Of a DNA stretch of 64,000 nucleotides, positions 23,830-42,282 are shown one piece after another. Every line of letters begins with the position of its first letter. Position 1 is the stretch's first letter. This stretch comes from a virus (lineage: Duplodnaviria > Heunggongvirae > Uroviricota > Caudoviricetes). The stretch lies in IMG/VR virus record IMGVR_UViG_3300028048_000076. One strand, written 5' to 3'. The position numbers and the translations under genes were made by a program. The notes below the pieces were generated by a model. That model was not told the origin of the DNA and did not search any database. It saw only the letters and a list, made by a program, of their open reading frames with translations.

Positions 23830-23909
23830 GAACATATTAATCCTTCTTTAGTGAATGAGTGATGGCAAAACAGTTATCACTCATTTTTAGTTTACAGAAA
23901 GGCATGGAA

Positions 23910-24737: not shown

Positions 24738-24810
24738 ATTTTATAAAATTTTATAAAAAAATCCAAAACTTTTTGAAAAATTTCAAAAAGTTTTGGATTT
24801 TTTTATTTTT

Positions 24811-25014
24811 TTACATTTTTTTTATTTCTTTGAAGAACTCCATTTCTTGTTCTGTTACTATAACTGCAATATATGATGATTTATCTCTAATATCCATCAG
24901 AAGATTTCCCTCGCCTGCTCTTAGATATTTGAGAGTAGCGATTATTCGCTCGTCAGGTATGTATTCTATACCTTCACAACAATCATCATATATGTACCAA
25001 TTTCTCATTACCAC
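24811..25014 (-). CDS. Small hypothetical protein
   Basis: 67-aa ORF with GGAG RBS. Confidence 0.55.
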   Translation of the reverse strand: MVMRNWYIYDDCCEGIEYIPDERIIATLKYLRAGEGNLLMDIRDKSSYIAVIVTEQEMEFFKEIKKM

Positions 25015-25110
25015 GTTTAGTTCTCCAATTTATTAGACTACTTATTACAAACAAAAATTGTATATATTATACAATGTCATATACATATACAATATCGTTA
25101 CAACAAAAAG

Positions 25111-27538: not shown

Positions 27539-27600
27539 AAAAACTATTGACAAAAATAAAATTCTTTGCTATGATTATAGTAAAGAAAGGAATGAGCGAT

Positions 27601-28989
27601 ATGAATTGTTATTATGGTACTCCGAAGCGTGGTTTTGAAATTGAAGTGCTTGTAGGATTACCTGCTAGTGGCAAAAGCACATATGCAAAGGCGAAGGAAA
27701 GCGAAGGGTATGTTGTTATTAGCAAAGATGATATTCGTCTAAAATGTGCTCGTAAGATGAATGATTTGGCATATGATGCGCCTGAAGGTTATTTTAAACC
27801 GTCCGAATTGCATCATTTCAGCAAAGTATGCAATGTAATCATTAATGATATTTGTGATAGTATTGTAAAATGGATAGCAAATAAATCGTTTTATGAAAAC
27901 GATTTAAATCGTAAGAGTCTGCACGAGTATACAGACGAAGAATATGAAGCCATACAAAAAGTATATTCGGAATACCTTAATCAGGTGTATAAAGCAAAGC
28001 ATGGTGTAATTTTTGATGCTACGTATTATACAAAGAAATCTCGTGTAATGTTTCCTGCGAAATTCAAGGATTGTGGTGTAAAACTCATTGCTCGTTATTT
28101 TGATTGCACTTTGGAAGAAGCTATCAAAGGTAATGAAGAGCGAAAGCAGTATAAAACGCTTTACAATGGCAAAGAATATGATGGTAGGCGAGTACCTGAT
28201 GATACATTGAGAAACATGTATAACAACCTCACTTTGCCAAGTGTAGAAGAAGGTTTTCATGTAGTCGTTGAAAACAAGCCGTGTTGTACAAAAATCAATG
28301 GTGATAAGTTGGTTCAGATGTATTATAACTTTGATAATTATTCTGAAGATGAAATTGCAGATATTTTTCCGAATGACTATTTCAAACAGTGCATCAATTT
28401 TAACCAATGTAATAGCCATCATACGCTTACCTTATCACAGCACATGTACCATTCTGCAAAATATGTTAAAGAGCATGGTGGTAATTTGACTACATTTATT
28501 GCGGCATTATTGCATGATGTAGGTAAGGCTGATACGAAAGGTTTATATGGTCGGTTAAATCGTGAATTCAACGGTTATAAGAATAATAAGGAATTGGAGA
28601 TTGTTGGTGAAGACGAAGTTTTTCATTGCGTAGACCCTTTTTCTAAGCATAAAATTGATGTACCGATGGATTATCTTGATGTAGATAGGGATTGTCACTA
28701 TTATAATCATCATGTAGTTTCAGCATTAAAGGCATGGCAAATGTTGAAAGGAATGTGTGATGAAAGAATGGCAAAAGATGTGTATAATCTCATTTATCAT
28801 CATATGGCAATACCTTTCAAATCAGATGATATTTCAACGAAAGCCTTGAATAAGATTAAGAAGTATTTAGGGGTTGAAGGGTTACATAATTTGGCATTGA
28901 TTAGGGAAGCTGATTTGTATGCAAAAGATTTGACCCCTCCAAATATCCCTGAATTAGTTACCTCAATTAAAAATTATCAATACATTTAA
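27601..28989 (+). CDS. Polynucleotide kinase (P-loop) fused to an HD phosphohydrolase
   Basis: VGLPASGKSTYAK, VIFDAT, RRVPDD; SHHTLTLSQHM, ALLHDVGK, YYNHHVVSA, EADL. Confidence 0.85.
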   Translation: MNCYYGTPKRGFEIEVLVGLPASGKSTYAKAKESEGYVVISKDDIRLKCARKMNDLAYDAPEGYFKPSELHHFSKVCNVIINDICDSIVKWIANKSFYENDLNRKSLHEYTDEEYEAIQKVYSEYLNQVYKAKHGVIFDATYYTKKSRVMFPAKFKDCGVKLIARYFDCTLEEAIKGNEERKQYKTLYNGKEYDGRRVPDDTLRNMYNNLTLPSVEEGFHVVVENKPCCTKINGDKLVQMYYNFDNYSEDEIADIFPNDYFKQCINFNQCNSHHTLTLSQHMYHSAKYVKEHGGNLTTFIAALLHDVGKADTKGLYGRLNREFNGYKNNKELEIVGEDEVFHCVDPFSKHKIDVPMDYLDVDRDCHYYNHHVVSALKAWQMLKGMCDERMAKDVYNLIYHHMAIPFKSDDISTKALNKIKKYLGVEGLHNLALIREADLYAKDLTPPNIPELVTSIKNYQYI

Positions 28990-28990
28990 C

Positions 28991-29025
28991 AAAAAAAAGG
29001 ACTGAGTAAAATCAGTCCTTTTTTT
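28991..29025. terminator. Bidirectional intrinsic terminator
   Basis: aaaaaaggactga..tcagtcctttttt. Confidence 0.8.
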
Positions 29026-29338
29026 AAATTGTAAAAAATTTTATATATAAAATTTTAAATACGTCTATATTTTCAATAAATGGTTGTAATACATTGTAAT
29101 ATCTATTGGCGTATATTTGTTTTGTTAAATAAGGTGTTCTGCTTGGATAACGAGAACAAGCGTTAAGAATTTCCTTTTCTGTTAAATTTTCTGACAAATT
29201 AAATTCATAAAGATTTTCAATAGTCAGCAAATATTGTTGTTGCAAGGAAAATTCTATTCCTTTAAATTGACCTGTTACGCAGTGTTTTATACGATTGTAA
29301 GAATAATTTAGCAATGGAATTTCTAATTTTTCGAACAT
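29024..29338 (-). CDS. Hypothetical protein
   Basis: 104-aa ORF. Confidence 0.55.
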   Translation of the reverse strand: MFEKLEIPLLNYSYNRIKHCVTGQFKGIEFSLQQQYLLTIENLYEFNLSENLTEKEILNACSRYPSRTPYLTKQIYANRYYNVLQPFIENIDVFKILYIKFFTI

Positions 29339-29341
29339 TTT

Positions 29342-29668
29342 TTATACCCCCATTTCTCTAGCTAGATAATTTTTGAAACATTTGATAGCGTATTTCATCT
29401 CTGCTTGAAATTCTTGATAAGCAGATACAATATTAAATGTATAATATTCATGTAAGAAAAATGATGGCAAGATTTTTGTGTCATAATGACCGAAGAAATG
29501 ATAATCTCTAAAAAGCTTGTCATAATCAACTGAAAAAATAAGATTTGCTTTATTTGAAAGAACTTTAACATCAAAACCTTCGAGAGATTTTGTTGATGAT
29601 ATAACAACGGTACAATTATCTGTTTCATATCCATAAGTAATTAAATTTTTATTCTCTCTTCTATACAT
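29342..29668 (-). CDS. Hypothetical protein
   Basis: 108-aa ORF. Confidence 0.55.
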   Translation of the reverse strand: MYRRENKNLITYGYETDNCTVVISSTKSLEGFDVKVLSNKANLIFSVDYDKLFRDYHFFGHYDTKILPSFFLHEYYTFNIVSAYQEFQAEMKYAIKCFKNYLAREMGV

Positions 29669-29701
29669 TTTTTTGTGCCTTTCCTATAATAAATATATCG
29701 A

Positions 29702-31246
29702 ATGGTTGAAAACCTTCATAGAAATTATACCATAATTATTGAAGGAAATCAATCAATATATAATGGAAAGGATATTTGGTACATGATAAAGGTAGATTCC
29801 AAAGCAGTATTTGGAGCTTTCAGTAATGAAGACTTTCGTAAATTCAGAAGGGATAATGAAAAACTGTCAAAACTTATGCATGAGATTGACGAGGAAATTG
29901 TAAATGCTCGTACTCCCAAATTCATATCACGTTTTGACGATTGCGGTAATGTAGGCAAGATTGACGTAATTAATAACAAGAAAATGCGTTTCAGTGCTAA
30001 CCGCTGTGGAAATCCCTTTTGTGCTGTATGTGGACGAGTAAAACAGCAGAAAGAATATGAGCGTATTTTATATGCCATGAATGATTATATTTTTCATAAC
30101 CCTGCAAATTACAATATTCACTTTGTCACTGTATCATTTAAAAACATTCCTGTTGAAGAATATACCGATACTGTAATATCTACACGAAAGGCATTGAGAG
30201 CATTATACAATGCTGCAGGTGTATATACACGTAAAGGTATTGTTGGTCATTCTCTTAGTGGACAGATTGGAAATAAAACTGTTGGTAGTTATTGGAGGTT
30301 TGAATCCACCTATAATTATAAGACAAATGAAATGCATCCTCATTACCACGCAATTGTTGTTATGAAGGAAGGGCAGACTATTTTGCCTGAAGTATGGCGT
30401 GAAGGTTTAATGAAGCAGTTTGATTTGAATTATGAACCGCAGATTTATATTGAACCTGTTCACTTTGAAGAAGAAGATGATATTATTGAAAATGTAGCAA
30501 GAATTTGTCGCTACATGAATAAGGGACAGGATTTCGAGTGGGATAGAATTCCGCACGAAAAGGCTATTTCTTTGGTTCGTCAGATGGTTGTCGATTTGAA
30601 AAAAGTACAGTATTATGTAGCAGCAGGATTCTTTGTTGATAGCAAATATACAAAGACACGCATGAGCAAATGCAAATCAGAACCCATCTTAGATGAAATT
30701 GGTGAACGTACCGAAGGTATGACTGATGAAGAAATTGACAACGTAACAATTGTTAACCCTGAAACAAAAATTGTATATACTCACGAAGAGAAAAAAGTGG
30801 CACAAATGGCTCTATGGAATATGAGCAACACAGCCCTAGCTTGCATGACGAGTGAAGAAGGATTAAAAGGAGCTTTGTCATCAGCGATTTTAAGAATTAA
30901 AAAGAAATGTGCTATGTTTTATGAACAGAAGCAAAATGAATTTAGCAATATATCCATAACAACCTTGGCTACGATTCTCAATCGAGAAAGAGATAGAAGA
31001 GAACGTAGATTGTTCAAAGAACGATTAAAAGAAGAACAAGCGAGGGAAACTTATAAGGTTGTATATAATCGAGTATTAGGACATTATATGGTAACGAGTC
31101 ATACTTATATGGATTCTTTTGGAAATAGAGTATCTGTAGGTTATCAGAGTTATTGTGCTTATGATGAATTCGAAGATAAATTGAATTCTGAAGAAATTAT
31201 CCCCATTGCTGAAAACGTATATGTTTTTAGAGGTGGCGGTGATTAA
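29702..31246 (+). CDS. Rolling-circle Rep (HUH endonuclease, Rep_1-like)
   Basis: RCGNPFCAVC, HFVTVSF (motif I), EMHPHYHAI (motif II), ICRYMNKG (motif III). Confidence 0.75.
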   Translation: MVENLHRNYTIIIEGNQSIYNGKDIWYMIKVDSKAVFGAFSNEDFRKFRRDNEKLSKLMHEIDEEIVNARTPKFISRFDDCGNVGKIDVINNKKMRFSANRCGNPFCAVCGRVKQQKEYERILYAMNDYIFHNPANYNIHFVTVSFKNIPVEEYTDTVISTRKALRALYNAAGVYTRKGIVGHSLSGQIGNKTVGSYWRFESTYNYKTNEMHPHYHAIVVMKEGQTILPEVWREGLMKQFDLNYEPQIYIEPVHFEEEDDIIENVARICRYMNKGQDFEWDRIPHEKAISLVRQMVVDLKKVQYYVAAGFFVDSKYTKTRMSKCKSEPILDEIGERTEGMTDEEIDNVTIVNPETKIVYTHEEKKVAQMALWNMSNTALACMTSEEGLKGALSSAILRIKKKCAMFYEQKQNEFSNISITTLATILNRERDRRERRLFKERLKEEQARETYKVVYNRVLGHYMVTSHTYMDSFGNRVSVGYQSYCAYDEFEDKLNSEEIIPIAENVYVFRGGGD

Positions 31247-31283
31247 AGGACACCGATTTAATATTTGTTAATTGGTGATAGTA

Positions 31284-32231
31284 ATGGAAAAAAGACGAGA
31301 TATGAAATCATACATTTGTGCAAAGCCAAGAAGGATTGCGGAAATTGAGATATTTAATGGGTGTAATGCAAAATGTGTGGTTTGTCCAAGAGGTTTAGGG
31401 TTAATGTCTAACCCTTGTACCACTATGGATTTTGAATTATATAAAAAGATTGTTGATAAATGCGCTGATTTAAAAGTGGAAGGTGTTTCTTTGTTTAGTT
31501 GGGGCGACCCCTTATTGAACAAAGATTTACCTAAATACTGTGAATATGCGCACAACAAAATGGAAGTGTATTTATCTTCCAATTTGAATATGAACGCTGA
31601 TTTTGAAAAATTCTTACCTCATATAAATAGTATGAGTATTTCAGTAAGTGGATTTAAACAGGAAACTTATGAAATCAACCATAGAGGATTGAATATTGAG
31701 AAGGTAAAAAAGAATTTAAGAATCATTGAAAGTGTTTTAGCCAAAATGGAAAAAGCCGATAGACCATATATAGAATTGAAATGGTTTGACTACGACTACA
31801 ATAAAGGCGAATTAGACATGTGGCGTGAATTTTTGGATTTAAGTTTAATCAACATTTATATCATTAAAGGTAATTATAATCCAATCGAAAATCGAGAAAA
31901 GATTGCAAAAGGTCATACATTTACGAATGATGATGAATTTATGGGGCGAGTTTGGATGTCAGGTTATCGTGATATGAATAAGATTGATTTGCGATATTGC
32001 AACTATATTCATAAATTTGCTATTGATGTTCAAGGGCGATTGTTATTGTGTTGTGAACCTATGTATGATGAACGTATGGTAATTGGAGATTTCTTAAAAG
32101 ATGACATTTATGAAATGCAATTAAAAAAACTACATCATAAACAATGTTTGTGCTGTGAGGTTTGGAATGAACAGGTTAATCTTTTAAGAAAACATGAAAT
32201 TGAAGCTATTAAAAATAAGACATTTCTGTAA
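31284..32231 (+). CDS. Radical SAM protein with SPASM/twitch-like C-terminus
   Basis: CNAKCVVC, SWGDPLL, CNY...AIDVQGRLLLCC, CLCC. Confidence 0.85.
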   Translation: MEKRRDMKSYICAKPRRIAEIEIFNGCNAKCVVCPRGLGLMSNPCTTMDFELYKKIVDKCADLKVEGVSLFSWGDPLLNKDLPKYCEYAHNKMEVYLSSNLNMNADFEKFLPHINSMSISVSGFKQETYEINHRGLNIEKVKKNLRIIESVLAKMEKADRPYIELKWFDYDYNKGELDMWREFLDLSLINIYIIKGNYNPIENREKIAKGHTFTNDDEFMGRVWMSGYRDMNKIDLRYCNYIHKFAIDVQGRLLLCCEPMYDERMVIGDFLKDDIYEMQLKKLHHKQCLCCEVWNEQVNLLRKHEIEAIKNKTFL

Positions 32232-32345
32232 GTTAATCGCCTATCAATAATAGGCGATTAAACTTTTTTTCAAAAATGTATTGACATTGGTCAAATATTC
32301 ATATATAATATAATCATTCAGAAGGAAATGAAAGGAATGATATTA

Positions 32346-34322
32346 ATGACAAAATATTCGCAGTTAGAGTTTGCAACTGCAATGTTGGGCTTGTTTAAGG
32401 CACTTCCTTGTGTAGATGAAATGTCTGAGCCTGTAAATCTTAATGATTCTGTAAAGATGGATTTTGTTCGCAAAGGTCTTATTTTATCTGATAAAGTCAT
32501 GCACCTTAAAATGCTGAAAAGCAGAGATATTCACTATGCAATTATCAGTAAAATGGGTCAATCGGCTGCGAAATTCAACAATACATTTTTTGAAAATATT
32601 GATAAGATTAGTTCTATGAAAGATGAAGAATATTATTTTCATCAGATTTTGAACTATCTCAGTTTCAATTTGGCAGATATGGGTCTTATTGATAATAGTG
32701 AGATTTATGTGCCGAACGAGAAAATTGGTATTTCTGAGGATATTCCTCCGTATCATTTGACTGTTGTGCAGGCAATGACCAAAGAGGAAACTAAAGAACG
32801 TATTGAAAAACTTTTGTATACAGGTGTAGCTTTGAAAGAAGAAACTGTATCGAAGATTTTCACTGTTAGTGATTGCTTCGGCTTTACTGATGAACTCGAT
32901 GCTGACAAGGTAAAGAATAAGGAAGCACAGCTTACCCTTTATAAACGTACAAATACAGTACCAAAGAATCCTGACTTCTTTGTACGCTATCTGTACTACC
33001 TTGCAACAGGTTCTACTATGCTTGTAAAGAGCAAACGTACTTATAAAATGTTGAACGATACATTGTGCTATAGCTCGTTAGTATCAAATGATATTGCAGG
33101 TGCATTGCGTAAGTATGTTAGCGATTATGGTTGCGAAACTCTTGCAAAAGCGTTTTATCGCAATAAGAAATTGCTTCTTCTCTTTAAAACTAAAGAAACT
33201 GCATACATTATCAATCGTACTCGCCGTTTGGCAGATAAGTACAAGAAAGCTCCGAAAGTCGGTGTTCTTGATAGATTGTCCGAACTCACTATGAAAGATT
33301 GGGATGATTTTGTTGCTGAAGTGGCTAAACTTAATGTATTTAAGAAAGTTGCTTTGATTAACTACATCATGAATCAGCATAGTGGCAATACAGATAGCTT
33401 GTATTTCATTCGTAATGGTAGAGTATTCTTCCGTGAGAATTACAGCGGTGGCAAGCCTAATATGCGATTCTTACAGCATCTCATTGAGAGTGTTGTGGAA
33501 GAAATGTCTCCTATTGTTGCAGGTAAGAAATTCTATATCCCACAGGGTATTGAATATGCTTTCCCTGTTTCTGAGAAGAAGTTCATTGGTGGCATTCCAT
33601 TCAATTCGAAGTTTACTTTGGAACGTAAGGGTGATGTACTCTTCGGTATTCATTGGTACAACTACGATAATGGTACGAAACACGGTAAAAGAACTGACCT
33701 TGACCTCCATATTACATCTGTATATGGTGAACGTATGGGTTGGAATAGCTATTATCGAGACAGTCAGCGTAGCACCTATTTTACAGGTGATATGACAGAT
33801 GCTCCTCGCAATGAAGGTGGTGCTTCTGAGTTGATGTATTTCACAAAGAATGCAAAACCGAATATGTATTCTGTAGCGATAAACAACTTTACCAACAATA
33901 ATTATCCGTTCCCATTCTCGTTGATTGTAAGCAATGCTGTCAATTATGAGGATGATGATAAGAGTGCTGTGGAAATTTGCAAAGATGCGTTTGTTAACAA
34001 CACTTGCAATTACATGACAGTGAATAATTATCTGAAGTCTGCAAACAATACTATGGGTTATTTCATTTTGAATGAAGATACCGCAGAGTTTGTATTTACA
34101 GATATGCAGGTTGGTAAATGTGTTGTACCGAATTCCATCGACTTCGATACCAAGATGATGAAATATATTTCTACTTATAGCGATACCGTTGTAAAACTGA
34201 AAGATGTTTTGGAATGGTGCAAGGCAGAAATTGTAGATGAACCTGTTGAAGGTTGCGTAAATCTTGATTATCGTGAGCTTGGCGAAACCACAATTCTTGA
34301 TGCTTTCTGCAAAAAGGATTGA
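32346..34322 (+). CDS. Large phage protein with TerD-like C-terminal beta domain
   Basis: FGIHW..RTDLDLH..GWNS..FTGDMTDAP..GASE. Confidence 0.55.
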   Translation: MTKYSQLEFATAMLGLFKALPCVDEMSEPVNLNDSVKMDFVRKGLILSDKVMHLKMLKSRDIHYAIISKMGQSAAKFNNTFFENIDKISSMKDEEYYFHQILNYLSFNLADMGLIDNSEIYVPNEKIGISEDIPPYHLTVVQAMTKEETKERIEKLLYTGVALKEETVSKIFTVSDCFGFTDELDADKVKNKEAQLTLYKRTNTVPKNPDFFVRYLYYLATGSTMLVKSKRTYKMLNDTLCYSSLVSNDIAGALRKYVSDYGCETLAKAFYRNKKLLLLFKTKETAYIINRTRRLADKYKKAPKVGVLDRLSELTMKDWDDFVAEVAKLNVFKKVALINYIMNQHSGNTDSLYFIRNGRVFFRENYSGGKPNMRFLQHLIESVVEEMSPIVAGKKFYIPQGIEYAFPVSEKKFIGGIPFNSKFTLERKGDVLFGIHWYNYDNGTKHGKRTDLDLHITSVYGERMGWNSYYRDSQRSTYFTGDMTDAPRNEGGASELMYFTKNAKPNMYSVAINNFTNNNYPFPFSLIVSNAVNYEDDDKSAVEICKDAFVNNTCNYMTVNNYLKSANNTMGYFILNEDTAEFVFTDMQVGKCVVPNSIDFDTKMMKYISTYSDTVVKLKDVLEWCKAEIVDEPVEGCVNLDYRELGETTILDAFCKKD

Positions 34323-34410
34323 TTTGATAGACCGCTTCGGCGGTCTATTTTTTTACAAAATTATTGACAAAATATACGAAATAAATTATAATAAACATGA
34401 GGTGATTAGA

Positions 34411-35361
34411 ATGGAGCAGAATGTAAAAGATGAATTTTATAAGCATTATAGCGAAAAAGTGCCTAACATTTGCTATTTAACGTTGGCAGGTAGTAAATCA
34501 TATGGTACAAATAATGAAAACTCTGATACAGATATTCGAGGGTTTTACCTTGAAACAAAAGAACAGTTGTTTGGACTAACTAAATATTCTACAGAATATA
34601 CGGATAGTGAAAATGATACTGTATTGTATTCATTTAAGAAGTTCTTGCATTTGTTGAGTAATTGTAATCCTAATGTAATTGAATTGCTTGGTACGAGAAA
34701 CGAAGATGTATTGTATATGACAGCATTATCTAGGGAAATGCGAATGAATGCTGAAATGTTTTTATCCAAACGAGCATATGTAACGTTTGGCGGTTATGCA
34801 GTGCAGCAGTTGCGTAGATTGCAGAACGCTTTGAGTCGCACTGACAATAAATTGAAGGAAGAACAGCTTTTAAAAACATTAAATCAGCAGATTGTTGAAA
34901 ATGTAGATGAATTATCAGCTTTGGGAAAATACGAATTACATATTGATGAAGAATTGAAAATTTCTGCAAATGTAAAAGATATATCTCTTAGAGATTTTTT
35001 GAATTCAAATGCTATTTTGAATAATACTATGCGTAATTTTGATAAAATTGGGCATAGGAATAACAAAAAAGACGAAAATCATTTGAATAAACATGCCATG
35101 CATTTGATTAGATTATATTATATGGGTATTGATATTCTTAAAAATGGTGTTATTAACACTTATCGTGAAAAAGAACACGATTTATTGATGACAATTCGTA
35201 ATGGCGAAATGTCATTTGATAAAGTTTTTGAAATGAGAGATAAACTTGAAGTAGAACTCCAAAAAGCATATGAAGAAAGTAAATTGCCTGAAACTGCTGA
35301 TATGAATAAAATTAATAAGTTCTGCATTGATGTATTAAATACGAATTTGAGGTGGGAATGA
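34411..35361 (+). CDS. DNA polymerase beta-superfamily nucleotidyltransferase (Nuc-transf/RlaP-like)
   Basis: LAGSKSYGTNNENSDTDIRG, NPNVIELL, KHAMHLIRL. Confidence 0.85.
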   Translation: MEQNVKDEFYKHYSEKVPNICYLTLAGSKSYGTNNENSDTDIRGFYLETKEQLFGLTKYSTEYTDSENDTVLYSFKKFLHLLSNCNPNVIELLGTRNEDVLYMTALSREMRMNAEMFLSKRAYVTFGGYAVQQLRRLQNALSRTDNKLKEEQLLKTLNQQIVENVDELSALGKYELHIDEELKISANVKDISLRDFLNSNAILNNTMRNFDKIGHRNNKKDENHLNKHAMHLIRLYYMGIDILKNGVINTYREKEHDLLMTIRNGEMSFDKVFEMRDKLEVELQKAYEESKLPETADMNKINKFCIDVLNTNLRWE

Positions 35362-35741
35362 TGGCTAAAATTGTTGTTGCAGGTGGGAGAACATATACAA
35401 ATACAGGCATGGTTTTTATTTGTTTGGAAGATATTGTTCAAAAAGATGATGTAATTATTTCAGGTCATGCTAAAGGCGTAGATATGATGGGAGAATTTTA
35501 TGCCCAAAAGAACAATTTAGTTTGTGAAATCTATCCTGCGGAATGGGACAAATATGGAAGAAGTGCAGGCCCTAGACGTAATGAGAAAATGGCACAGATT
35601 GCAGATAAGGTAGTTGTATTTTGGGACTTCAAATCTCGTGGTACAAAAAACATGATTGATATGGCTAAAAAATATAAGAAAGAGTTGTTCATCTTTGATT
35701 ATTTTGGCAATTTAAAACAACATTTTTTATTCAATGATTAA
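35358..35741 (+). CDS. SLOG-family (DUF2493) protein
   Basis: VAGGR, ISGHAKGVD, AEWDKYGRSAGPRRN, SRGTKNMI. Confidence 0.85.
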   Translation: MMAKIVVAGGRTYTNTGMVFICLEDIVQKDDVIISGHAKGVDMMGEFYAQKNNLVCEIYPAEWDKYGRSAGPRRNEKMAQIADKVVVFWDFKSRGTKNMIDMAKKYKKELFIFDYFGNLKQHFLFND

Positions 35742-35795
35742 TATAATCAAAAAACCTGTTCTATATAGAACAGGTTTTTTGATATTGGAATATAT

Positions 35796-36587
35796 TTATT
35801 TTTGCTTAAAGTAGATTTCAAGCATTTTATCTAAGAGATTGCCTGAAAGGAGGTAAGGGTAACGACCAAAGAATGAATCACCGATGAAATTATTAGAAGC
35901 AAGAGATTCATCGCATTCTTCGGTGTTGCATTCCCAATATTTAAGCTCGTCCATATGAATCATAACAGATAAGAAATCACAATCATGGATGATAAAATAT
36001 ACTGCTTTTTCTGCAACTGAATCGTCCTTTTTGAACATTTTTGCTTTATGGCAGACAAAAGCCTTAATAGCCTTTTCAATGAACCAAGGATTAACGGCAT
36101 TAATATTAATAGTTTCTTTTTCCTTAGTGAGTTTATCATATGCTTCGAGGTAATCTTTACGTACCATAGGGGTATTTTCAAGTTCTGCAAATTTTTCGTC
36201 ATAAATTTTTCTGTTTTCTGCCATCAAATCAGAATTTTTCTCACTAATTTCCTCAAAAAAGTGAGAAAAAGAATCATCAGCGTAACCATTATTAGCGCAG
36301 TAATCAATGAGTTCGAGATAATTCGAATATTTTCTAGCAGGTTTAGATTTAGATTTGGATTTTTTAGGCATAGTAATCACTCCTTTTCGTTTTTTTATAG
36401 CATTAACGATATTTTTCACGCCGTGTTCAGACAATCTATCACCGTTATCGAAATGAACGGTAAAGAATTGAACTGTACGGTTATTAACGAAATCAATATC
36501 AACGAAAGTATCAGTAATGTCATGCTGATATTTTTTTGGAATATATTTTGCTAAGTCTGCATTATCTTTCATGTTTAAAACCTCCAT
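35796..36587 (-). CDS. Hypothetical protein
   Basis: 263-aa ORF. Confidence 0.65.
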   Translation of the reverse strand: MEVLNMKDNADLAKYIPKKYQHDITDTFVDIDFVNNRTVQFFTVHFDNGDRLSEHGVKNIVNAIKKRKGVITMPKKSKSKSKPARKYSNYLELIDYCANNGYADDSFSHFFEEISEKNSDLMAENRKIYDEKFAELENTPMVRKDYLEAYDKLTKEKETININAVNPWFIEKAIKAFVCHKAKMFKKDDSVAEKAVYFIIHDCDFLSVMIHMDELKYWECNTEECDESLASNNFIGDSFFGRYPYLLSGNLLDKMLEIYFKQK

Positions 36588-36718
36588 TCGTTTTATGGTT
36601 ATATTATAACATTCAACTGATATTTTGTCAACACTTTTTTTAAAACAACAAATGTACAGAAGTTTACAAAATAATTACTTATCTTCTATAATATTAACAA
36701 AAAAAGGAGGTTTGAGGA

Positions 36719-37063
36719 ATGACTATGAAAGATTTTTTCAAAAAGATGTTTGATGAAGCTGATGATAGAAATAAGGCACAGATTGCGTATATTATATCTC
36801 ATTTTGTTAATAAAGATGTAACTATGATTTTAACAGATGAAGATAGTTTGACAAAATTCATTGATGCACATGATTCAATGCATAATAAAAAAATTGGGTT
36901 TTATGATGATGATGAATTTGTAGAAGTATTTGTCTGCGAACCTTATAAGTACGGAAGCGGAATGTTATTAACACCTACTGAAAAATTGAAAGAGTTTTTA
37001 GATACAATTGAATGTAAAAAACTTGTAACAGAATTTAGCTTTGCTTTGCTAAAAGAACATTAA
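36719..37063 (+). CDS. Hypothetical protein
   Basis: 114-aa ORF, AGGAGG RBS. Confidence 0.7.
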   Translation: MTMKDFFKKMFDEADDRNKAQIAYIISHFVNKDVTMILTDEDSLTKFIDAHDSMHNKKIGFYDDDEFVEVFVCEPYKYGSGMLLTPTEKLKEFLDTIECKKLVTEFSFALLKEH

Positions 37064-37076
37064 GAGGTGATAGATT

Positions 37077-37781
37077 GTGAAAAATAGAGTTCCTGTTAAT
37101 TTGAATATTATGGCAATAGATATAGGACTAAATTATCTTGGAGCTTGTACAACTACAACACATGACCACTTTTTGTTGGATGGACATTTGTTAAAATCCT
37201 GGTCATTTTTCTATTTGAAAAAAGTGCATGAATTAGAAAAGATTAATCCACAATCCAAAAGAATTTATAAATATAAACAAAAAAACCTTGCCTATATCAA
37301 TCAGTATATTTTCAAAGTAAACTCTTATCTGAAAAGATATTGTAAAAAAAACAAAATCCATACGATAATTATCGGTAAAATTCCGACAAAGAAGATTAAG
37401 AAAAATAATTTGTTCTTTAACATGGATTATGATTATCAAAATGTCAATTCGTATATAATGTCTTGTATGTACTATGAGACAATTGATATGGCGAAGCAGA
37501 ACAATATATCTGTTGTATTTATTGATGAAGCACATACATCCAATTGTAGTTTTTATGATAATGAATGGCTTATTTACAAACATCGTAAAGGGAGAGTTTG
37601 TAGAGGAAGATTTAAAACGTTTGATGGGCATAATGTCCATGCAGATATAAATGCTAGTTTAAATTTCTTTAGGAAAAATGAAAAATGTGAACGGTTATTG
37701 GATTTTGAAAAAGCAAAGGAAAGAATGCTTTTACATCCACGAAAAGTATTCTTTCCTGACAACAATCAAAAAAAATTATAA
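37077..37781 (+). CDS. Truncated TnpB (IS200/IS605 OrfB)-like RuvC-domain protein
   Basis: AIDIGLNYL, IDEAHTSNCSFYD, GRFKT, HADINASLN; N-terminal region missing and no tnpA nearby. Confidence 0.75.
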   Translation: MKNRVPVNLNIMAIDIGLNYLGACTTTTHDHFLLDGHLLKSWSFFYLKKVHELEKINPQSKRIYKYKQKNLAYINQYIFKVNSYLKRYCKKNKIHTIIIGKIPTKKIKKNNLFFNMDYDYQNVNSYIMSCMYYETIDMAKQNNISVVFIDEAHTSNCSFYDNEWLIYKHRKGRVCRGRFKTFDGHNVHADINASLNFFRKNEKCERLLDFEKAKERMLLHPRKVFFPDNNQKKL

Positions 37782-37796
37782 AAATATATTTTTGTG

Positions 37797-37830
37797 TTGA
37801 CAAATATATATGAAAAGTATATAATAAGAA
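37797..37830 (+). promoter_or_regulatory. Promoter of a small RNA
   Basis: TTGACA followed by TATAAT; no RBS or ORF downstream. Confidence 0.7.
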
Positions 37831-37914
37831 TGTAATCGCTGATGCGATTATACAGTTTGTTTTTCATTTTAACAATCTCCGACTTCTCACTTTGTTCGGT
37901 TGAAGTGGGGAGTT
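37831..37914 (+). ncRNA. Candidate ~85-nt small RNA
   Basis: 5' hairpin TAATCGC/GCGATTA, U-rich linker, 3' hairpin; bounded by a promoter and an HDV-like ribozyme. Confidence 0.5.
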
Positions 37915-37980
37915 GGCACTATGATACAGCCTTTCCGTGGCAGTGCTATAAGTAGTTCGCAAGAACGAAACCAATGTATC
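37915..37980 (+). ncRNA. HDV-like ribozyme 1
   Basis: P1 GGCACT/AGTGCT, P2 GATACA/TGTATC, P3 GCC/GGC, L3 TTTCCGT, P4 GTTC/GAAC, J4/2 GAAACCAA. Confidence 0.85.
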
Positions 37981-38068
37981 AATCCTTTCAATATATAAAT
38001 ATTGGAAAAATCTCCCACGCCTTTTCTACCTTTATCAACGTGGGAGATTTTTTTGTGAGGGACATGTA

Positions 38069-38404
38069 ATGATATATACAACATATTTTGCGAAAACAAA
38101 ATTAATTAAGGAAAAAGATAAACTTGTTTCAATAACAAGATTTCCTCCTAAAAATATTAGCATGAAATCATTTCAGAAATTAGCACCATCAAAAGAATTG
38201 TTAAATAAGTATAAAACAGATGGTGATAAAGAATATTTCATTAACGAATTCAATAAGTATTTAGATTCATTAGATGCAAAAGCATTTGCTGAATTTTTAG
38301 ATGGATATATTCTTTGTTGCTATGAAAAATCAACGGATTTTTGTCATAGACATTTAGTTGCAGAATGGTTTAGAAGAAATGGCTATGGTTGTGAGGAGTT
38401 ATAA
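38069..38404 (+). CDS. DUF488 family protein
   Basis: IYTTYF, LAPSKELL, LCCYEK..FCHRHLVAEW. Confidence 0.8.
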   Translation: MIYTTYFAKTKLIKEKDKLVSITRFPPKNISMKSFQKLAPSKELLNKYKTDGDKEYFINEFNKYLDSLDAKAFAEFLDGYILCCYEKSTDFCHRHLVAEWFRRNGYGCEEL

Positions 38405-38599
38405 TGAACGTTACATTGGTATATGGTGGCAAACGTATTAACGTGGAATCTGTGGATGCAATAATAAAACGTGAGCGTGGAGAAGAAGTATTCATTAACT
38501 TGCTGTCACATGATTCTCTTGACGTTGATAATTACATTAGTAAATTAAAAAGTTTAGACGGAACAAAATATAAAATGTGAAAATATTTTTGTAAAACGC

Positions 38600-38911
38600 T
38601 TGACAAATATGTACAAAGATTGTATAATAAGAATGTAGTTGAGAGATAAACAAATGACTTGAATGTTTCATTAATTCTTTCAATAAATTCTAAAAAAGTG
38701 CTTGACAAGATAAAGACATTTTGATATAATAATAAATGTCAAAAGCGAGAAATTAAATTGACTTGATTGTAACAATTAATTCTCGAAAATCTTAAAAAAA
38801 AGTGCTTGACAATAACATTGAAAAATGTTATAATAAAGAAGTCGATTGAGATTGAAATAAATCAAAATCACAAAAAAAGATGTTGACAAATTATCACAAA
38901 AGTGATATAAT
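38600..38911 (+). promoter_or_regulatory. Four tandem consensus sigma70 promoters driving the RNA cluster
   Basis: TTGACA at 38600, 38702, 38806 and 38883, each with TATAAT at 17 bp and an A-rich upstream tract. Confidence 0.85.
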
Positions 38912-38917
38912 AAAGAA

Positions 38918-39188
38918 GTCAGTTAAGGCGACCTACTCTCAACGGAGTAAAACAACAAGTAGTTGAGAGAATAAAAGTAAAGGATAGTACCACTTCTTAT
39001 ATTCATGCTATACATGATTTAGAAATAAGAGCCTGACTGATGGCGAAAGAGAATTCTTAGGAGTTATGACCCCTGTAGGACAAGGCATAACATTATCATC
39101 CGAATAAGGTTGCAGTCTTATGAAGGTGCTTAAAAAAAATTCGTTAGGTCTTTGAAGGTTATTTTTCCATTCTCTACCTTCAGAGATA
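38918..39188 (+). ncRNA. Unidentified ~270-nt structured RNA A
   Basis: No ORF; hairpins CTCTCAAC/GTTGAGAG, TTATG/CATAA, TCTTTGAAGGT/ACCTTCAGAGA; ends at a ribozyme cleavage site. Confidence 0.5.
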
Positions 39189-39260
39189 GCAATTCAATAA
39201 CACATACCGTCACGAGGTGAATTGTGTAATTAGTCAGAAATGATGAAACTAAATTGTGTG
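39189..39260 (+). ncRNA. HDV-like ribozyme 2
   Basis: P1 GCAATTC/GAATTGT, P2 ACACA/TGTGT, P3 ACC/GGT, L3 GTCACGA, P4 GTCA/TGAT, J4/2 GAAACTAA. Confidence 0.8.
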
Positions 39261-39271
39261 AAATTTAATAC

Positions 39272-39346
39272 TGCCCAATCGTCTAACGGTTAGGATGACA
39301 GACTTTGAATCTGTAGGTGTTGTTTCGACTACAACTTGGGCTGCCA
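39272..39346 (+). tRNA. tRNA-Gln(TTG)
   Basis: Cloverleaf, CT-TTG-AA loop, encoded CCA. Confidence 0.9.
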
Positions 39347-39419
39347 ATGATTTTTAAAACTTCAGACTTGATGTGAAAATATCGTTTCTTCCTGTTTTCT
39401 GAAGTTTTGAAATAAATTT

Positions 39420-39681
39420 GAATAATCTGCCTAACAATGGATTGATAATTGTCTTTTTAAGACATGGGCAGAAAAACGTTGCAAAAGCAATATAAATCCT
39501 AAGTCTTACAGAATCATGTGATGGCCTCCGAAAATCAATGATTTGTGTTTGAACTTCTACTAAAATTAGTAAGATAGGGACGAATTGCACTGCGAAAGCT
39601 GTATATCCCTGAATGTAACGCGCTGTATGTATCACATAACAGATGAAGTTGGGAGTACCCTATAGGAAACTATGGGGATAT
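39420..39681 (+). ncRNA. Unidentified ~260-nt structured RNA B
   Basis: Helices TCTGCCT/GGGCAGA, TGTCTT/AAGACA, AACTTC/GAAGTT, GGGA/TCCC, CCCTATAG/CTATGGGG; ends at a ribozyme cleavage site. The 5' end is approximate. Confidence 0.5.
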
Positions 39682-39758
39682 GACAATCAATTTTGCAAAC
39701 CTTCTCGTGGTGATTGTCGTAAGTATACATTTTTTGAAATGTAGAAACAAATTGCAAA
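39682..39758 (+). ncRNA. HDV-like ribozyme 3
   Basis: P1 GACAATC/GATTGTC, P2 TTTGCAA/TTGCAAA, P3 ACC/GGT, L3 TTCTCGT, P4 TACATTT/AAATGTA, J4/2 GAAACAAA. Confidence 0.85.
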
Positions 39759-39803
39759 TAAAACTGTAAACTATATGTATTTAATAGTTACCAAACAAAA
39801 ATG

Positions 39804-39942
39804 TTTTTGCATAAACAACTTCCTTTCAGTCTTGCAAAACTATTTTAGTTGTCGCAAAAATAAATATAAAAATTTAATAACGGCATAAATAGCTTCCTTT
39901 TGAAAAATTATTTATGGGAAAGTAATTTAGTTATCGCCGTTA
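39804..39942 (+). repeat. Anti-SD hairpin motif, copies a (39804-39860) and b (39878-39942)
   Basis: stem-ATAA-6bp-TCCTTT...TT-6bp-C-stem. Confidence 0.75.
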
Positions 39943-39948
39943 ATATAT

Positions 39949-40022
39949 GCACTTCTAGTTTAATGGTAAAACTTCGGTTTTGTAAACCGACAATATCAGT
40001 TCAATTCTGATGGGGTGCTCCA
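39949..40022 (+). tRNA. tRNA-Thr(TGT)
   Basis: Cloverleaf, TT-TGT-AA loop, CCA. Confidence 0.9.
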
Positions 40023-40027
40023 ATAAT

Positions 40028-40100
40028 GGCTCGTTGGTCTAGTGGTCTAGGACATTACTCTTTCAAGGTAGTAACAGCAGTTCAAATCTGCTACGAGTCA
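40028..40100 (+). tRNA. tRNA-Glu(TTC), no encoded CCA
   Basis: Cloverleaf, CT-TTC-AA loop; a ribozyme starts right after the discriminator. Confidence 0.9.
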
Positions 40101-40167
40101 GTCACTCAAAGCATTAGCCTTTACGTTGGCGAGTGACATAAGTAGGTTAACCGAAACTAATAATGCT
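40101..40167 (+). ncRNA. HDV-like (theta) ribozyme 4
   Basis: P1 GTCACTC/GAGTGAC, P2 AGCATTA/TAATGCT, P3 GCC/GGC, J4/2 GAAACTAA. Confidence 0.85.
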
Positions 40168-40170
40168 AAA

Positions 40171-40298
40171 AGTCTTGTGACGAAATAGGTAAACGTTATG
40201 TGTAACTTGACACAAACCTTGGCAGTGTGGTTCGATTCCACGATACAAGAATGGAGAAAGCAAGGGATAATGTAAGGTGCAAATCCTTACCAAGACTT
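40171..40298 (+). ncRNA. tRNA-like RNA with two T-arms
   Basis: Acceptor AGTCTTG/CAAGACT, D-arm, internal GTGGTTCGATTCCAC and terminal GTAAGGTGCAAATCCTTAC; no canonical 7-nt anticodon loop. Confidence 0.65.
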
Positions 40299-40390
40299 TT
40301 GTAATTAAAGATATTAAGCTAACATCTTCCCCACTTGTGAACCTGAGATGTAAAGATTGTACAGATATAGGATATAATCAGCTTCATAAT

Positions 40391-40465
40391 ACCTTGGGTG
40401 CGTGTAATGGTAACACGGCTAGACTGTGAATCTAGTAATATGGGTTCGAATCCCATCCCTCGGAC
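40391..40465 (+). tRNA. tRNA-His(GTG), mismatched acceptor stem, no CCA
   Basis: CT-GTG-AA loop, intact T-arm; acceptor CCTTGGG/CCCTCGG has two mismatches. Confidence 0.7.
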
Positions 40466-40537
40466 GGTTTTCTTAAACATCAACCTTCTCGTGGTGAAAA
40501 CTGTAAGTAATCATTTATGATAAAACTAATAGATGTT
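40466..40537 (+). ncRNA. HDV-like (theta) ribozyme 5
   Basis: P1 GGTTTTC/GAAAACT, P3 ACC/GGT, L3 TTCTCGT, P4 ATCAT/ATGAT, P2 AACATC/GATGTT. Confidence 0.85.
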
Positions 40538-40540
40538 AAA

Positions 40541-40608
40541 AAAAGACAAAAAGCACTTCCTTTTGCTAATGCGCCGATTTGTTAAATCGTTTTTAGTGCT
40601 CGTCTTTT
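40541..40608 (+). repeat. Anti-SD hairpin motif, copy c
   Basis: AAAGAC-AAAA-AGCACT-TCCTTT...AGTGCT-C-GTCTTT. Confidence 0.75.
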
Positions 40609-40613
40609 AAAAA

Positions 40614-40690
40614 GGCCCTATAGTTTAGTTGGTCAAAACATCGCCCTGTCACGGCGAAGACCATCGGTTCAAGTCCGATTAGGGTCGCCA
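40614..40690 (+). tRNA. tRNA-Asp(GTC)
   Basis: Cloverleaf, CT-GTC-AC loop, CCA. Confidence 0.92.
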
Positions 40691-40695
40691 AATAT

Positions 40696-40772
40696 GTGTC
40701 AGTAGCTCAGTTGGTAGTAGCAACAGACTTTTAATCTGTAGGTCGTGGATTCAAGTTCCACCTGACACACCA
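40696..40772 (+). tRNA. tRNA-Lys(TTT)
   Basis: Cloverleaf, CT-TTT-AA loop, CCA. Confidence 0.92.
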
Positions 40773-40778
40773 TATTAT

Positions 40779-40859
40779 TCCGCAGTGATGAAATGGTAGA
40801 CATGCTTGACTGTTAATCAAGTGCCGAAAGGCGTGTAGGTTCGAGTCCTACTTGCGGAG
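40779..40859 (+). tRNA. tRNA-Asn(GTT) with long variable arm, no CCA
   Basis: CT-GTT-AA loop, variable arm GCC-GAAA-GGC, G discriminator. Confidence 0.85.
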
Positions 40860-40931
40860 GTTATTCGATAACATCAACCTTTACGTGGTGAATAACATAA
40901 GTAATCATTTATGATGAAACTAATAGATGTT
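40860..40931 (+). ncRNA. HDV-like (theta) ribozyme 6
   Basis: P1 GTTATTC/GAATAAC, P3 ACC/GGT, L3 TTTACGT, P4 ATCAT/ATGAT, J4/2 GAAACTAA. Confidence 0.88.
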
Positions 40932-40935
40932 AAAA

Positions 40936-40990
40936 TAAAGACATAAAACACTTCCTTTTACAACAGGTGTTTGGTTAGTGTTCGTCTTTA
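40936..40990 (+). repeat. Anti-SD hairpin motif, copy d
   Basis: AAAGAC-ATAA-AACACT-TCCTTT...AGTGTT-C-GTCTTT. Confidence 0.75.
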
Positions 40991-40996
40991 AAAAAA

Positions 40997-41083
40997 GCGA
41001 GGATGGCGAAATCAGGCATACGCACAGAGTTTAAGCCTCTGCGGTTTTATACCATGTGGGTTCGACCCCCACTCTTCGCACCA
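40997..41083 (+). tRNA. tRNA-Leu(TAA)
   Basis: Class II cloverleaf, TT-TAA-GC loop, CCA. Confidence 0.9.
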
Positions 41084-41084
41084 T

Positions 41085-41168
41085 GCCCTTGTGCTGAAAT
41101 TGGCAGACAGGGTGCGCTCAAAACGCACTGATGGTAACATCGTACAGGTTCAAATCCTGTCAGGGGCA
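41085..41168 (+). tRNA. tRNA-Leu(CAA), no CCA
   Basis: Class II cloverleaf, CT-CAA-AA loop, A discriminator followed by a ribozyme. Confidence 0.9.
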
Positions 41169-41239
41169 GTTATCCAATAACATCAACCTTTACGTGGTGG
41201 ATAATATAAGTAATTCATAAGAATGAAACTAATGATGTT
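41169..41239 (+). ncRNA. HDV-like (theta) ribozyme 7
   Basis: P1 GTTATCC/GGATAAT, P2 AACATCA/TGATGTT, P3 ACC/GGT, P4 ATTC/GAAT. Confidence 0.88.
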
Positions 41240-41244
41240 AAATG

Positions 41245-41705
41245 CTTTGTGGAAATGGCAACTGATTTCAACGAAACAAACGTATTGTACCTTCGATTGA
41301 GATTACAGTTGAGAGTATTAAATCAAAGTAATCATGCTAGTACCCCATTTTGGACACACTAGGAATTTTGCTTAATGACTGTGGAGATTGATTATCGTAG
41401 AAGCAGTAAAACACCACACAAATTATGGGCTTTATTAAGGTTAGCGTCTTATGAAGTCGAATCGAATCCGAACTAAATCGTATAATCGCCCACACATAAC
41501 GCTAATGTGATGGAGAAATACGATGGAAGGCCCTTTTGGCACGAGGGTACGGATATGGTATGCAGAGAACTACAACCTGTCAGTGAGTTATCAGCTGCGA
41601 ATGTAGCCGTAGAATACCGCGAGAGCGTATCGAGGGAGAAGGCGAACTCTCGACGTTAGGTGTAAAATACGCAAGAGGTTATGATGCCACATAACTTCGT
41701 CTTTA
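41245..41705 (+). ncRNA. Candidate large ornate RNA (ROOL/GOLLD class)
   Basis: ~460 nt with no ORF, more GC-rich than its flanks, many helices (GGGC/GCCC, TTAGCGT/ACGCTAA, TCGAG/CTCGA, AGTTATG-type), inside the tRNA array. Confidence 0.45.
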
Positions 41706-41706
41706 T

Positions 41707-41797
41707 GGAGCAGTACCCAAGTGGTTATAAGGGAACAGTCTTGAAAACTGTGAGGTCGCAGTGATGCGGTGCGTGAGTTCGAATCTCACCTGCTCTT
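41707..41797 (+). tRNA. tRNA-Ser(TGA), no CCA
   Basis: Class II cloverleaf, CT-TGA-AA loop. Confidence 0.88.
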
Positions 41798-41798
41798 C

Positions 41799-41867
41799 GT
41801 TGTTCATTGTATCAGCCTTTTCGTGGCGAACAACATAAGTAATCAAAATGATGAAACCAATGATACT
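41799..41867 (+). ncRNA. HDV-like (theta) ribozyme 8
   Basis: P1 GTTGTTC/GAACAAC, P2 GTATCA/TGATAC, P3 GCC/GGC, L3 TTTTCGT, J4/2 GAAACCAA. Confidence 0.85.
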
Positions 41868-41883
41868 ATTAAATATAATTAAT

Positions 41884-41958
41884 GCGAATATAATTTAATG
41901 GTTAGAATCTCAGTCTTCCAAACTGATTGTGTCGGTTCGATTCCGACTATTCGCTCCA
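41884..41958 (+). tRNA. tRNA-Gly(TCC)
   Basis: CT-TCC-AA loop, U discriminator, CCA. Confidence 0.9.
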
Positions 41959-41962
41959 TAAT

Positions 41963-42049
41963 GGGTAGGTGTGATAAGCGGCGAAATCAGCGGACTGTAA
42001 ATCCGTGACACTAGAAACATCGAAGGTTCGAGTCCTTCCCTGCCCACCA
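41963..42049 (+). tRNA. tRNA-Tyr(GTA)
   Basis: CT-GTA-AA loop, long variable arm, CCA. Confidence 0.9.
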
Positions 42050-42128
42050 CGTTACCGAAGAGAAATTACTTTAACGTAGTGGTAACGTTAAGTATGTATT
42101 TTAACAATACAGAAACTAAAAATTTCTC
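42050..42128 (+). ncRNA. HDV-like (theta) ribozyme 9
   Basis: P1 CGTTACC/GGTAACG, P2 GAGAAATT/AATTTCTC, P3 ACT/AGT, L3 TTAACGT, P4 TGTATT/AATACA; starts right after CCA. Confidence 0.8.
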
Positions 42129-42282
42129 ATATAAATATTTTTTTGGCTGACGAAGCCACTCTAAAAATATTTTGGAGTGTAGCACATTAATGTGCTACTA
42201 TTTAATTTGCTTAATTAAGAAATGGTAAACGGACTTCAATTATCTGAATGCTCCCAAAAAACCTTTCTTTAAAAAAAATATA

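Follow-up and report, generated by a model that had tools for sequence, protein, structure and literature searches.

HDV-like ribozymes at tRNA 3′ ends and a candidate RNA-end-healing enzyme in a fragment of a jumbo phage genome

The 64,000-nt DNA of the IMG/VR virus record IMGVR_UViG_3300028048_000076 (Caudoviricetes), referred to here at its whole length as the window, is a portion of the genome of a jumbo phage from the gut or rumen and was found to contain nine ribozymes of the hepatitis delta virus (HDV) type in and beside an array of tRNA genes, together with a gene for a predicted fusion of a polynucleotide kinase and an HD phosphoesterase (Pnk-HD). The picture considered rather likely is one in which ribozymes form the 3′ ends, the phage also carries a generic toolkit for RNA repair, and CCA is probably added by the host. 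The kinase-HD protein is, on the basis of its sequence, plausibly the best phage-encoded candidate for the removal of cyclic phosphate from the released tRNAs, without being the exclusive one. The original prediction had read the same genes as a possible complete phage pathway of tRNA 3′ maturation, a reading that failed at the CCA-adding step, where the motifs of the presumed enzyme at 2289 were lost, and in the co-occurrence of its parts across phages.

Ribozymes of the tRNA array

The array was found to contain 12 tRNAs on the + strand at 39272-42049, for which ARAGORN and Rfam were concordant, and the tRNAs for Glu, His, Asn, Leu(CAA) and Ser were found to be without an encoded CCA. A covariance model (R1) was made from seven ribozyme copies aligned by eye, in which the helices P1, P3 and P4 were modelled, and was used in an unfiltered search of the whole window; P2 crosses P1, so it was left out of the model and was read directly in each copy. 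The nine HDV-like ribozymes found at 37915-42129 comprised the seven training copies, regained at 63-90 bits, and two copies outside the training set, one at 39189 with 49 bits and the other at 37915 with 47 bits. The ribozymes and the RNAs that they follow are:

37915..37983, + strand, HDV-like ribozyme after a non-tRNA RNA, 134 nt 3′ of a TnpB-like open reading frame (R1 47.4 bits, not trained on)
39189..39263, + strand, HDV-like ribozyme after a non-tRNA RNA, just 5′ of tRNA-Gln (R1 49.2 bits, not trained on)
39682..39759, + strand, HDV-like ribozyme after a non-tRNA RNA (R1 69.1 bits; RF02682 23 bits)
40027..40170, + strand, tRNA-Glu (no CCA) and ribozyme, predicted cut after 40100
40392..40540, + strand, tRNA-His (no CCA) and ribozyme, predicted cut after C73 at 40465
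40779..40934, + strand, tRNA-Asn (no CCA) and ribozyme, predicted cut after 40859
41085..41242, + strand, tRNA-Leu(CAA) (no CCA) and ribozyme, with a G1-U wobble, predicted cut after 41168
41707..41870, + strand, tRNA-Ser (no CCA) and ribozyme, predicted cut after 41798, one C past the discriminator by our reading
41963..42129, + strand, tRNA-Tyr (CCA encoded) and ribozyme, predicted cut directly after CCA at 42049

The modelled cells of P1, P3 and P4 were found to be standard pairs in 97.7% of cases across the nine copies, and double-sided changes were present in 12 of the 15 modelled pairs. None of 500 shuffles matched the observed values of pairing and covariation, and pairing fell to 26-63% when the partners were slid. 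P2 was found to be complementary in every copy, and one pair of P1.1 was found to covary (U-A, C-G, A-U). The AAAC.AA block was invariant in all copies and contains the conserved cytosine that opens J4/2 (C-N-A-A), for which a catalytic role is predicted. Since pairing, covariation, the shuffled and slid controls and the complementarity of P2 all agree, the ribozymes are considered real as sequence and structure, with self-cleavage as a prediction from these. The Rfam model HDV-F-prausnitzii (RF02682) scored them at 18-26 bits, below its gathering score of 44, and its sub-threshold matches begin at, or one base ahead of, the end of several tRNA calls.

Theta ribozymes, a minimal type of HDV-like ribozyme, were described from the 3′ side of tRNAs in gut phages (Kienbeck et al. 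2024, PMC10879173), with the published layout P1, J, P2, ACC, U, CC, ACGU, GGU, P1′, GG, 6-nt L4, CUAA, P2′ (PMC10879173 supplement). The copies in the window were found to share with them the order P1, P2, P3, L3, P1′, junction, J4/2 C-N-A-A and P2′, and likewise the predicted cut exactly at the tRNA 3′ end, the occurrence in large gut phages and the association mostly with CCA-less tRNAs. They differ from theta ribozymes in that a true, covarying P4 of 4-5 bp was found between invariant AAGUA and GAAA, whereas theta ribozymes contain the 6-nt L4; in that P1.1 is CC/GG in theta ribozymes and A/U-rich in the window, with U.U plus one covarying pair; and in that they also stand behind three RNAs other than tRNAs and behind one tRNA that bears CCA. 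The copies thus fall outside the theta descriptor as published, with its CC/GG P1.1 and short L4, and also miss the Rfam cut-off. A covariance model of canonical theta ribozymes (R3), built from 45 IMG/VR copies, scored them at 16-23 bits only, and a sequence pattern for the window type gave zero matches in IMG/VR. The window ribozymes are, as far as sequence and predicted structure go, a P4-bearing variant of theta ribozymes.

A ribozyme was found to abut each of the five CCA-less tRNAs, the two being -1 to 0 nt apart, so that the original prediction was right in giving a ribozyme to all five. P1 starts immediately 3′ of the discriminator in tRNA-Glu, -His, -Asn and -Leu(CAA), and in tRNA-Ser, by our reading, one C past it. 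The tRNA-Tyr, in which CCA is encoded, was found to bear a ribozyme likewise, which had escaped the original prediction and for which the cut is predicted right after CCA; 3/9 ribozymes stand behind RNAs other than tRNAs. HDV-type cleavage leaves a 2′,3′-cyclic phosphate on the upstream RNA and a 5′-OH on the ribozyme. By this established chemistry the ribozymes are predicted to cut themselves off and so to fix the 3′ ends of the RNAs exactly, after which each released RNA would bear the cyclic phosphate and each ribozyme the 5′-OH. The premise that such an end blocks the use of a tRNA is sound and agrees with a cell-free system in which HDV-released tRNA was functional only when T4 polynucleotide kinase (PNK) was added (PMC12381190).

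Some further features of this region were observed. Non-coding stretches of 220-460 nt without an Rfam family were found among 38580-39188, 39347-39681, 40171-40391 and 41243-41706, and two of these non-coding RNAs are terminated by ribozymes. One such stretch contains a tRNA-like T-arm, GGTTCGATTCC, at about 40230. The open reading frame (ORF) 5′ of the ribozyme at 37915 codes for a short TnpB-like protein of 234 aa with OrfB_IS605 and TNB domains, and the ribozyme sits 134 nt 3′ of it (37077-37983); it might set the 3′ end of the guide RNA of the TnpB-like element. Four tandem near-consensus sigma-70 promoters (TTGACA-N17-TATAAT) were found in the window at 38.6-38.9 kb.

Candidate enzymes for end healing and CCA addition

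The gene of the kinase-HD protein is:

27571..28989 (start at 27547, 27571 or 27601), + strand, predicted Pnk-HD, a fusion of polynucleotide 5′-kinase and HD phosphoesterase (AAA_33 E=2e-15, plus HD)

The protein was found to contain an N-terminal P-loop kinase followed by a C-terminal HD domain, and the catalytic residues of both halves were all kept across 30 homologs, most of about 300 aa. The invariant residues of the alignment, counted there over 31 homologs, were GLPASGKST, D61, R64, D157, R166 and R199 in the kinase and the metal ligands H292, H299, H323-D324, H388, H419 and D456 in the HD domain. The family profile matched the kinase of Clostridium thermocellum Pnk (2e-24) and T4 Pnk (2e-16), followed by Pnkp1 and mammalian PNKP, and the fold of an AlphaFold2 model (pLDDT, the predicted local distance difference test, of 87) matched PNKP, CthPnk and T4 Pnkp, so that the kinase stands nearest to kinases of RNA repair. 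The whole-protein fold search was swamped by the kinase half, and the HD half was therefore placed by sequence profile. An HD-only profile matched 3WFO-3WFS within their HD region (1e-12), and the H, HD, H and HH positions were all aligned. These nearest solved HD relatives are chains of a bacterial class II nucleotidyltransferase, deposited as 'Poly A polymerase', in which HD is joined to a nucleotidyltransferase and not, as in the phage protein, to a kinase.

The HD domain of the Escherichia coli CCA enzyme has 2′,3′-cyclic phosphodiesterase and phosphatase activity. The kinase/HD-phosphatase of phage RM378 has, by its description, an N-terminal kinase and a C-terminal HD domain in the same order as Pnk-HD, and HD-Pnk of Runella is likewise described as a bifunctional polynucleotide kinase and HD phosphoesterase. 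The phage protein is longer, at 470-480 aa, than the family core of about 300 aa, because both of its domains contain large inserts, and a single-sequence query gave no close relative of it in IMG/VR. In one database homolog (P0089) the kinase-HD was found to be fused to a T4 Rnl1-like ligase domain. With catalytic residues intact and both Pnk and HD profiles matched, the kinase-HD fusion that the original prediction had placed at 27601 was confirmed, and a 2′,3′-phosphoesterase role of the protein is credible. Beside the gene a homolog of the rolling-circle replication protein Rep_1 was found at 29702-31246, and the same layout was observed in a 98%-identical gut metagenome contig (L172).

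The further genes considered for end healing, CCA addition and RNA repair are:

2289..3593, + strand, class II tRNA-nucleotidyltransferase homolog, predicted inactive (NF009814 E=2e-23; 1MIV E=1e-9)
34411..35361, + strand, Pol-beta nucleotidyltransferase of the RlaP family (PF10127 E=1e-21, 77.9 bits against a cut-off of 23; phrog_388 E=2e-59)
35352..35741, + strand, YAcAr/YspA SLOG-domain protein, the start of which overlaps the RlaP stop (PF10686 E=1e-12; phrog_289)
23859..24737, + strand, DUF2828 protein (PHROG 'RNA-binding protein'), apparently partial (PF11443 E=2e-17; phrog_850 E=1.5e-33)
12845..14413, + strand, metallophosphoesterase of a phage exonuclease family (phrog_284 'exonuclease' E=3e-50; phrog_704 'DNA repair exonuclease'; Metallophos E=1e-5)
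14980..15654, + strand, small metallophosphoesterase of 224 aa, candidate alternative healing enzyme (phrog_1649 E=5e-33)

The homology of the protein at 2289 to class II CCA enzymes was found to span the full protein (head, neck and body), with a match to NF009814 over residues 6-365 that is far below the cut-off of that model. Against 1MIV, its DxD was found as D-I-R, its RRD as R-K-V and its EDxxR as H-Y-x-x-R. The 11 other family members, at 45-93% identity, contained the same losses, mostly with N-T-T for DxD. In motif A, GG was replaced by G[EK] and DxD by DIR or NTT in 12/12 members; in motif B, RRD was found as R-K-V, or as R-R-C in two members; and in motif D, EDxxR was found as (E/H)YxxR. 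GG, DxD, RRD and ED were all retained in the three canonical enzymes aligned with the family. The phage homolog contains neither the HD domain nor the catalytic carboxylates of the 3WFO-3WFS class, and an HD remnant in its C-terminal half was ruled out by profile-profile comparison. Because GG, DxD, RRD and EDxxR are gone in every aligned member, the protein is predicted to be catalytically inactive, as a conserved pseudo-enzyme or at least no conventional polymerase. The homology to CCA enzymes in the original prediction thus stood, and the CCA-adding role given to the gene did not. Since this protein is without catalytic residues, CCA addition would fall to the host, or else to RlaP: the host CCA enzyme would probably complete the five truncated tRNAs, and addition by RlaP is a speculative alternative.

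RlaP enzymes add 1-2 nucleoside monophosphates (NMP) to damaged RNA 3′-OH ends (PMC12776372). The protein at 34411, named as a Pol-beta nucleotidyltransferase in the original prediction, was placed in this family by PF10127 and was found to contain the intact GS...DTD motif of Pol-beta in the stretch GSKSYGTNNENSDTDI. The 664-aa ORF just 5′ of RlaP (32328-34322) was considered as a hidden RNA ligase and was rejected, with no Pfam, PHROG, NCBIfam or PDB match and no KxDG seen. The DUF2828 gene covers positions 45-241 of the 476 in the phrog_850 profile, its protein is 39% identical to the DUF2828 protein of a theta phage, and a separate ORF of 87 aa follows (23859-25036); the gene may be split or truncated.

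The two calcineurin-like phosphoesterases that the original prediction had proposed as healing enzymes were found to differ. The gene at 12845 matched a phage exonuclease family (phrog_284), and on this account its sequence points to work on DNA ends and not on tRNA, which makes it a poor tRNA candidate. The protein at 14980 was retained as a metallophosphoesterase; it gave no Pfam match, and against solved structures only a weak similarity to Dbr1 was found, at the GNHE motif (E=0.04).

Relatives, distribution and rival explanations

Homologs of the 2289 family were found on syntenic contigs, the longest of 386 kb, and a near-complete relative was available in IMG/VR (G136; 281 kb, 98% complete). 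It was found to contain three ribozymes of the window type directly 3′ of tRNA-Gly, -Glu and -His, and a 486-aa kinase-HD about 10 kb from the ribozyme-tRNA loci, as in the window, where the kinase-HD likewise lies 10 kb from the array. It also contains a T4 Rnl1-type ligase (PF09511, 81 bits), and its 2289-family gene was the sole match of the PolyA_pol type. By synteny, the corresponding ligase of the phage studied here probably lies outside the window, beyond its end. The ribozyme-linked tRNAs of the relative were found to end in CC, CCA or CCA+A. Because they mostly encode CCA or CC, the pairing of ribozymes with CCA-less tRNAs is not a rule of the lineage. For ribozyme-released tRNAs that bear CCA, a phosphoesterase alone would suffice. 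The predicted cuts in the relative (L354 7989-8061, 9268-9343) fall after CC in tRNA-Gly and one base after CCA in tRNA-His; such ends would therefore need addition of A or trimming besides dephosphorylation. In relatives (L314/L315 3808-6372) a PhoH gene with an intein and a LAGLIDADG endonuclease was observed.

The co-occurrence of theta ribozymes with Pnk-HD genes, which the original prediction had proposed as a test, was followed from both sides. On the kinase side, 35 IMG/VR records in which a relative of the kinase or of the kinase-HD is encoded were searched with a model of the window-type ribozyme (R2), which gave 0/35; R2 misses canonical theta ribozymes, and an R3 scan, in which 3 positive controls were detected, was added and gave a canonical theta ribozyme in 1/35. 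In 12/35 kinase loci tRNAs were found within 10 kb, and in ribozyme-free phages (L004, L007-L009, L012, L021) the kinase-HD was often found 1-2 kb 5′ of a tRNA array opening with tRNA-Gln, a position that fits a tRNA-directed role independent of ribozymes. On the theta side, canonical loci were fetched by pattern, 103 of which contained a valid P1, and 50 whole records, all of at least 100 kb, were searched. The kinase profile was matched in 31/50; five of these were full kinase-HD proteins, and two of the others that were checked were T4-like kinase-HAD Pnkp. The kinase was present in 16/94 tRNA-bearing phage records of any size, which gave an apparent theta enrichment (p=8e-8). Both the kinase and a DraRnl-like ligase were found in 27 of the 50 theta records, the kinase only in 4, the ligase only in 3 and neither in 16 (p=7e-7), with a kinase-ligase distance of usually 1-12 kb. 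Neither gene was found in 8/32 near-complete theta genomes. One theta-phage cassette (L299; G063:26000-32500) was observed to contain an RNA ligase, RlaP, Pnk-HD, a Thg1-like tRNA-His guanylyltransferase and a metallophosphoesterase.

Several results weigh against the favoured picture of ribozyme 3′-end formation served by a general toolkit. Among theta-free tRNA phages matched for size (at least 100 kb), the kinase was present in 10/23 (43%) as compared with 62% of theta records (p=0.20), and full kinase-HD in 13% of these controls as compared with 10% of theta records, the control sets being small and phylogenetically non-independent. No RNA ligase was found in the window by Pfam or PHROG scans or by tblastn, so a ligase partner is predicted from the relative. 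A divergent nucleotidyltransferase such as the 2289 protein could in principle use unconventional residues. The proposed test of co-occurrence thus gave no specific signal. Since there is no size-matched enrichment, only 1/35 kinase records with a theta ribozyme, a linkage of kinase to ligase and 8/32 genomes with neither, the healing enzymes of phages are not required for the use of ribozymes and are not specific to it; they behave as parts of a heal-and-seal toolkit.

Such an RNA-repair toolkit of jumbo phages was described by Iyer et al. 2021 (PMC7824862). The window shares with it RlaP, SLOG, a CCA-like gene and the DUF2828 protein, the last taken here as the TROVE-type component of that review; a 5′-kinase fused to a 3′-phosphoesterase is shared with both the toolkit and T4 Pnkp plus Rnl1, and the T4 Rnl1-type ligase is shared through the close relative. 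The differences are that the phosphatase of T4 Pnkp is HAD whereas the enzyme of the window is HD, and that the toolkit genes of the window are scattered over 35 kb, with no cassette and no ligase within it. From the distribution we infer that the toolkit serves primarily to heal and seal tRNAs that host nucleases have broken. As a side use, the HD domain would open the cyclic phosphate of ribozyme-released tRNAs and then remove it, and the kinase half may phosphorylate the 5′-OH ribozyme fragments. We give slightly less than an even chance to an action of the kinase-HD on ribozyme-cut RNAs in vivo, which would be a second task of an enzyme with a general role. More tentative is a wider proposal in which the toolkit healers (the kinase-HD of this phage, and T4-like kinase-HAD proteins elsewhere among theta phages) would strip the cyclic phosphate, so that the tRNAs could receive CCA or, if it is encoded, be charged at once, the kinase might mark the ribozyme fragment for decay by phosphorylating its 5′-OH, and the dead CCA homolog conserved in this lineage would serve as a binding factor of tRNA 3′ ends and not as an enzyme.

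A dedicated phage pathway, in which the ribozyme cut is followed by healing through the kinase-HD or the calcineurin-like proteins and by CCA addition through a phage CCA enzyme or the Pol-beta protein, is now regarded as very improbable. All five CCA-less tRNAs bear ribozymes, a predicted healing-competent HD enzyme is found 10 kb from the array in the window and the relative alike, and a 250-fold enrichment of tRNA adenylyltransferase was reported for theta phages (Kienbeck et al., PMC10879173). These points are set against a CCA homolog without GG, DxD, RRD or EDxxR in all aligned members, the CCA or CC that is mostly encoded by the ribozyme-linked tRNAs of the relative, the match of the 12845 gene to an exonuclease family, the 1/35 kinase records with a theta ribozyme and no size-matched enrichment, and the 8/32 near-complete theta genomes in which kinase and ligase are both missing. 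The last of these, together with the absence of ribozymes from most kinase-HD phages, also speaks for a pure counter-defence role, in which kinase-HD, RlaP, SLOG, DUF2828 and the off-window ligase would mend only tRNAs cut by anticodon nucleases of the host while host enzymes clear the ribozyme cyclic phosphates. The tight kinase-ligase linkage and the cassettes, the existence of a kinase-HD-ligase fusion and the prior description of the toolkit (PMC7824862) agree with this role. It is held to be unlikely, although to be taken seriously: a co-resident healing phosphoesterase is expected to act on abundant cyclic-phosphate ends of tRNAs, as T4 Pnkp does in vitro (PMC12381190), and for the predicted hosts no host enzyme for the removal of cyclic phosphate was identified.

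The calcineurin-type phosphoesterase of C. thermocellum Pnkp heals RNA ends, and the 224-aa protein at 14980 in the window, itself a metallophosphoesterase, or else a protein not recognised as such, could be the healer while the kinase-HD acts elsewhere. The protein at 14980 lies within a phage metallophosphoesterase family (phrog_1649), and a metallophosphoesterase is present in the theta-phage repair cassette; the two were found to have no similarity to each other, and 14980 has neither an informative solved relative nor a genomic link to the tRNA array, so this reading is hardly probable at all.

The theta-ribozyme paper proposes the maturation of phage tRNA 3′ ends, and the word 'cyclic' occurs in it 0 times (PMC10879173). 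The remover of the cyclic phosphate in vivo, once identified, would complete the model of theta-ribozyme tRNA maturation, which matters for engineered tRNA arrays. The window gives a concrete candidate enzyme for this step together with a caution, namely that this enzyme is part of a general repair kit and that the occurrence of the kit across phages does not follow that of the ribozymes. The kit was missing from some theta phages, and host enzymes or other factors must therefore often suffice. The components are of known kinds. What is new is an explicit healing candidate and, as smaller observations, the family of dead CCA enzymes and the P4-bearing variant of the ribozyme, which is used more widely in that it also ends non-tRNA RNAs and a CCA-bearing tRNA.

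Other features of the window

Megablast of 27547-42128 against GenBank phages gave no match. No suppressor tRNA or recoding was evident in the window when alternative genetic codes were compared for their open frames, and an alternative code was rejected, as the open frames gained nothing. A gene for a transporter of the major facilitator superfamily (MFS) was found at 51867-53099 (PF07690 E=8e-33) amid otherwise phage DNA.

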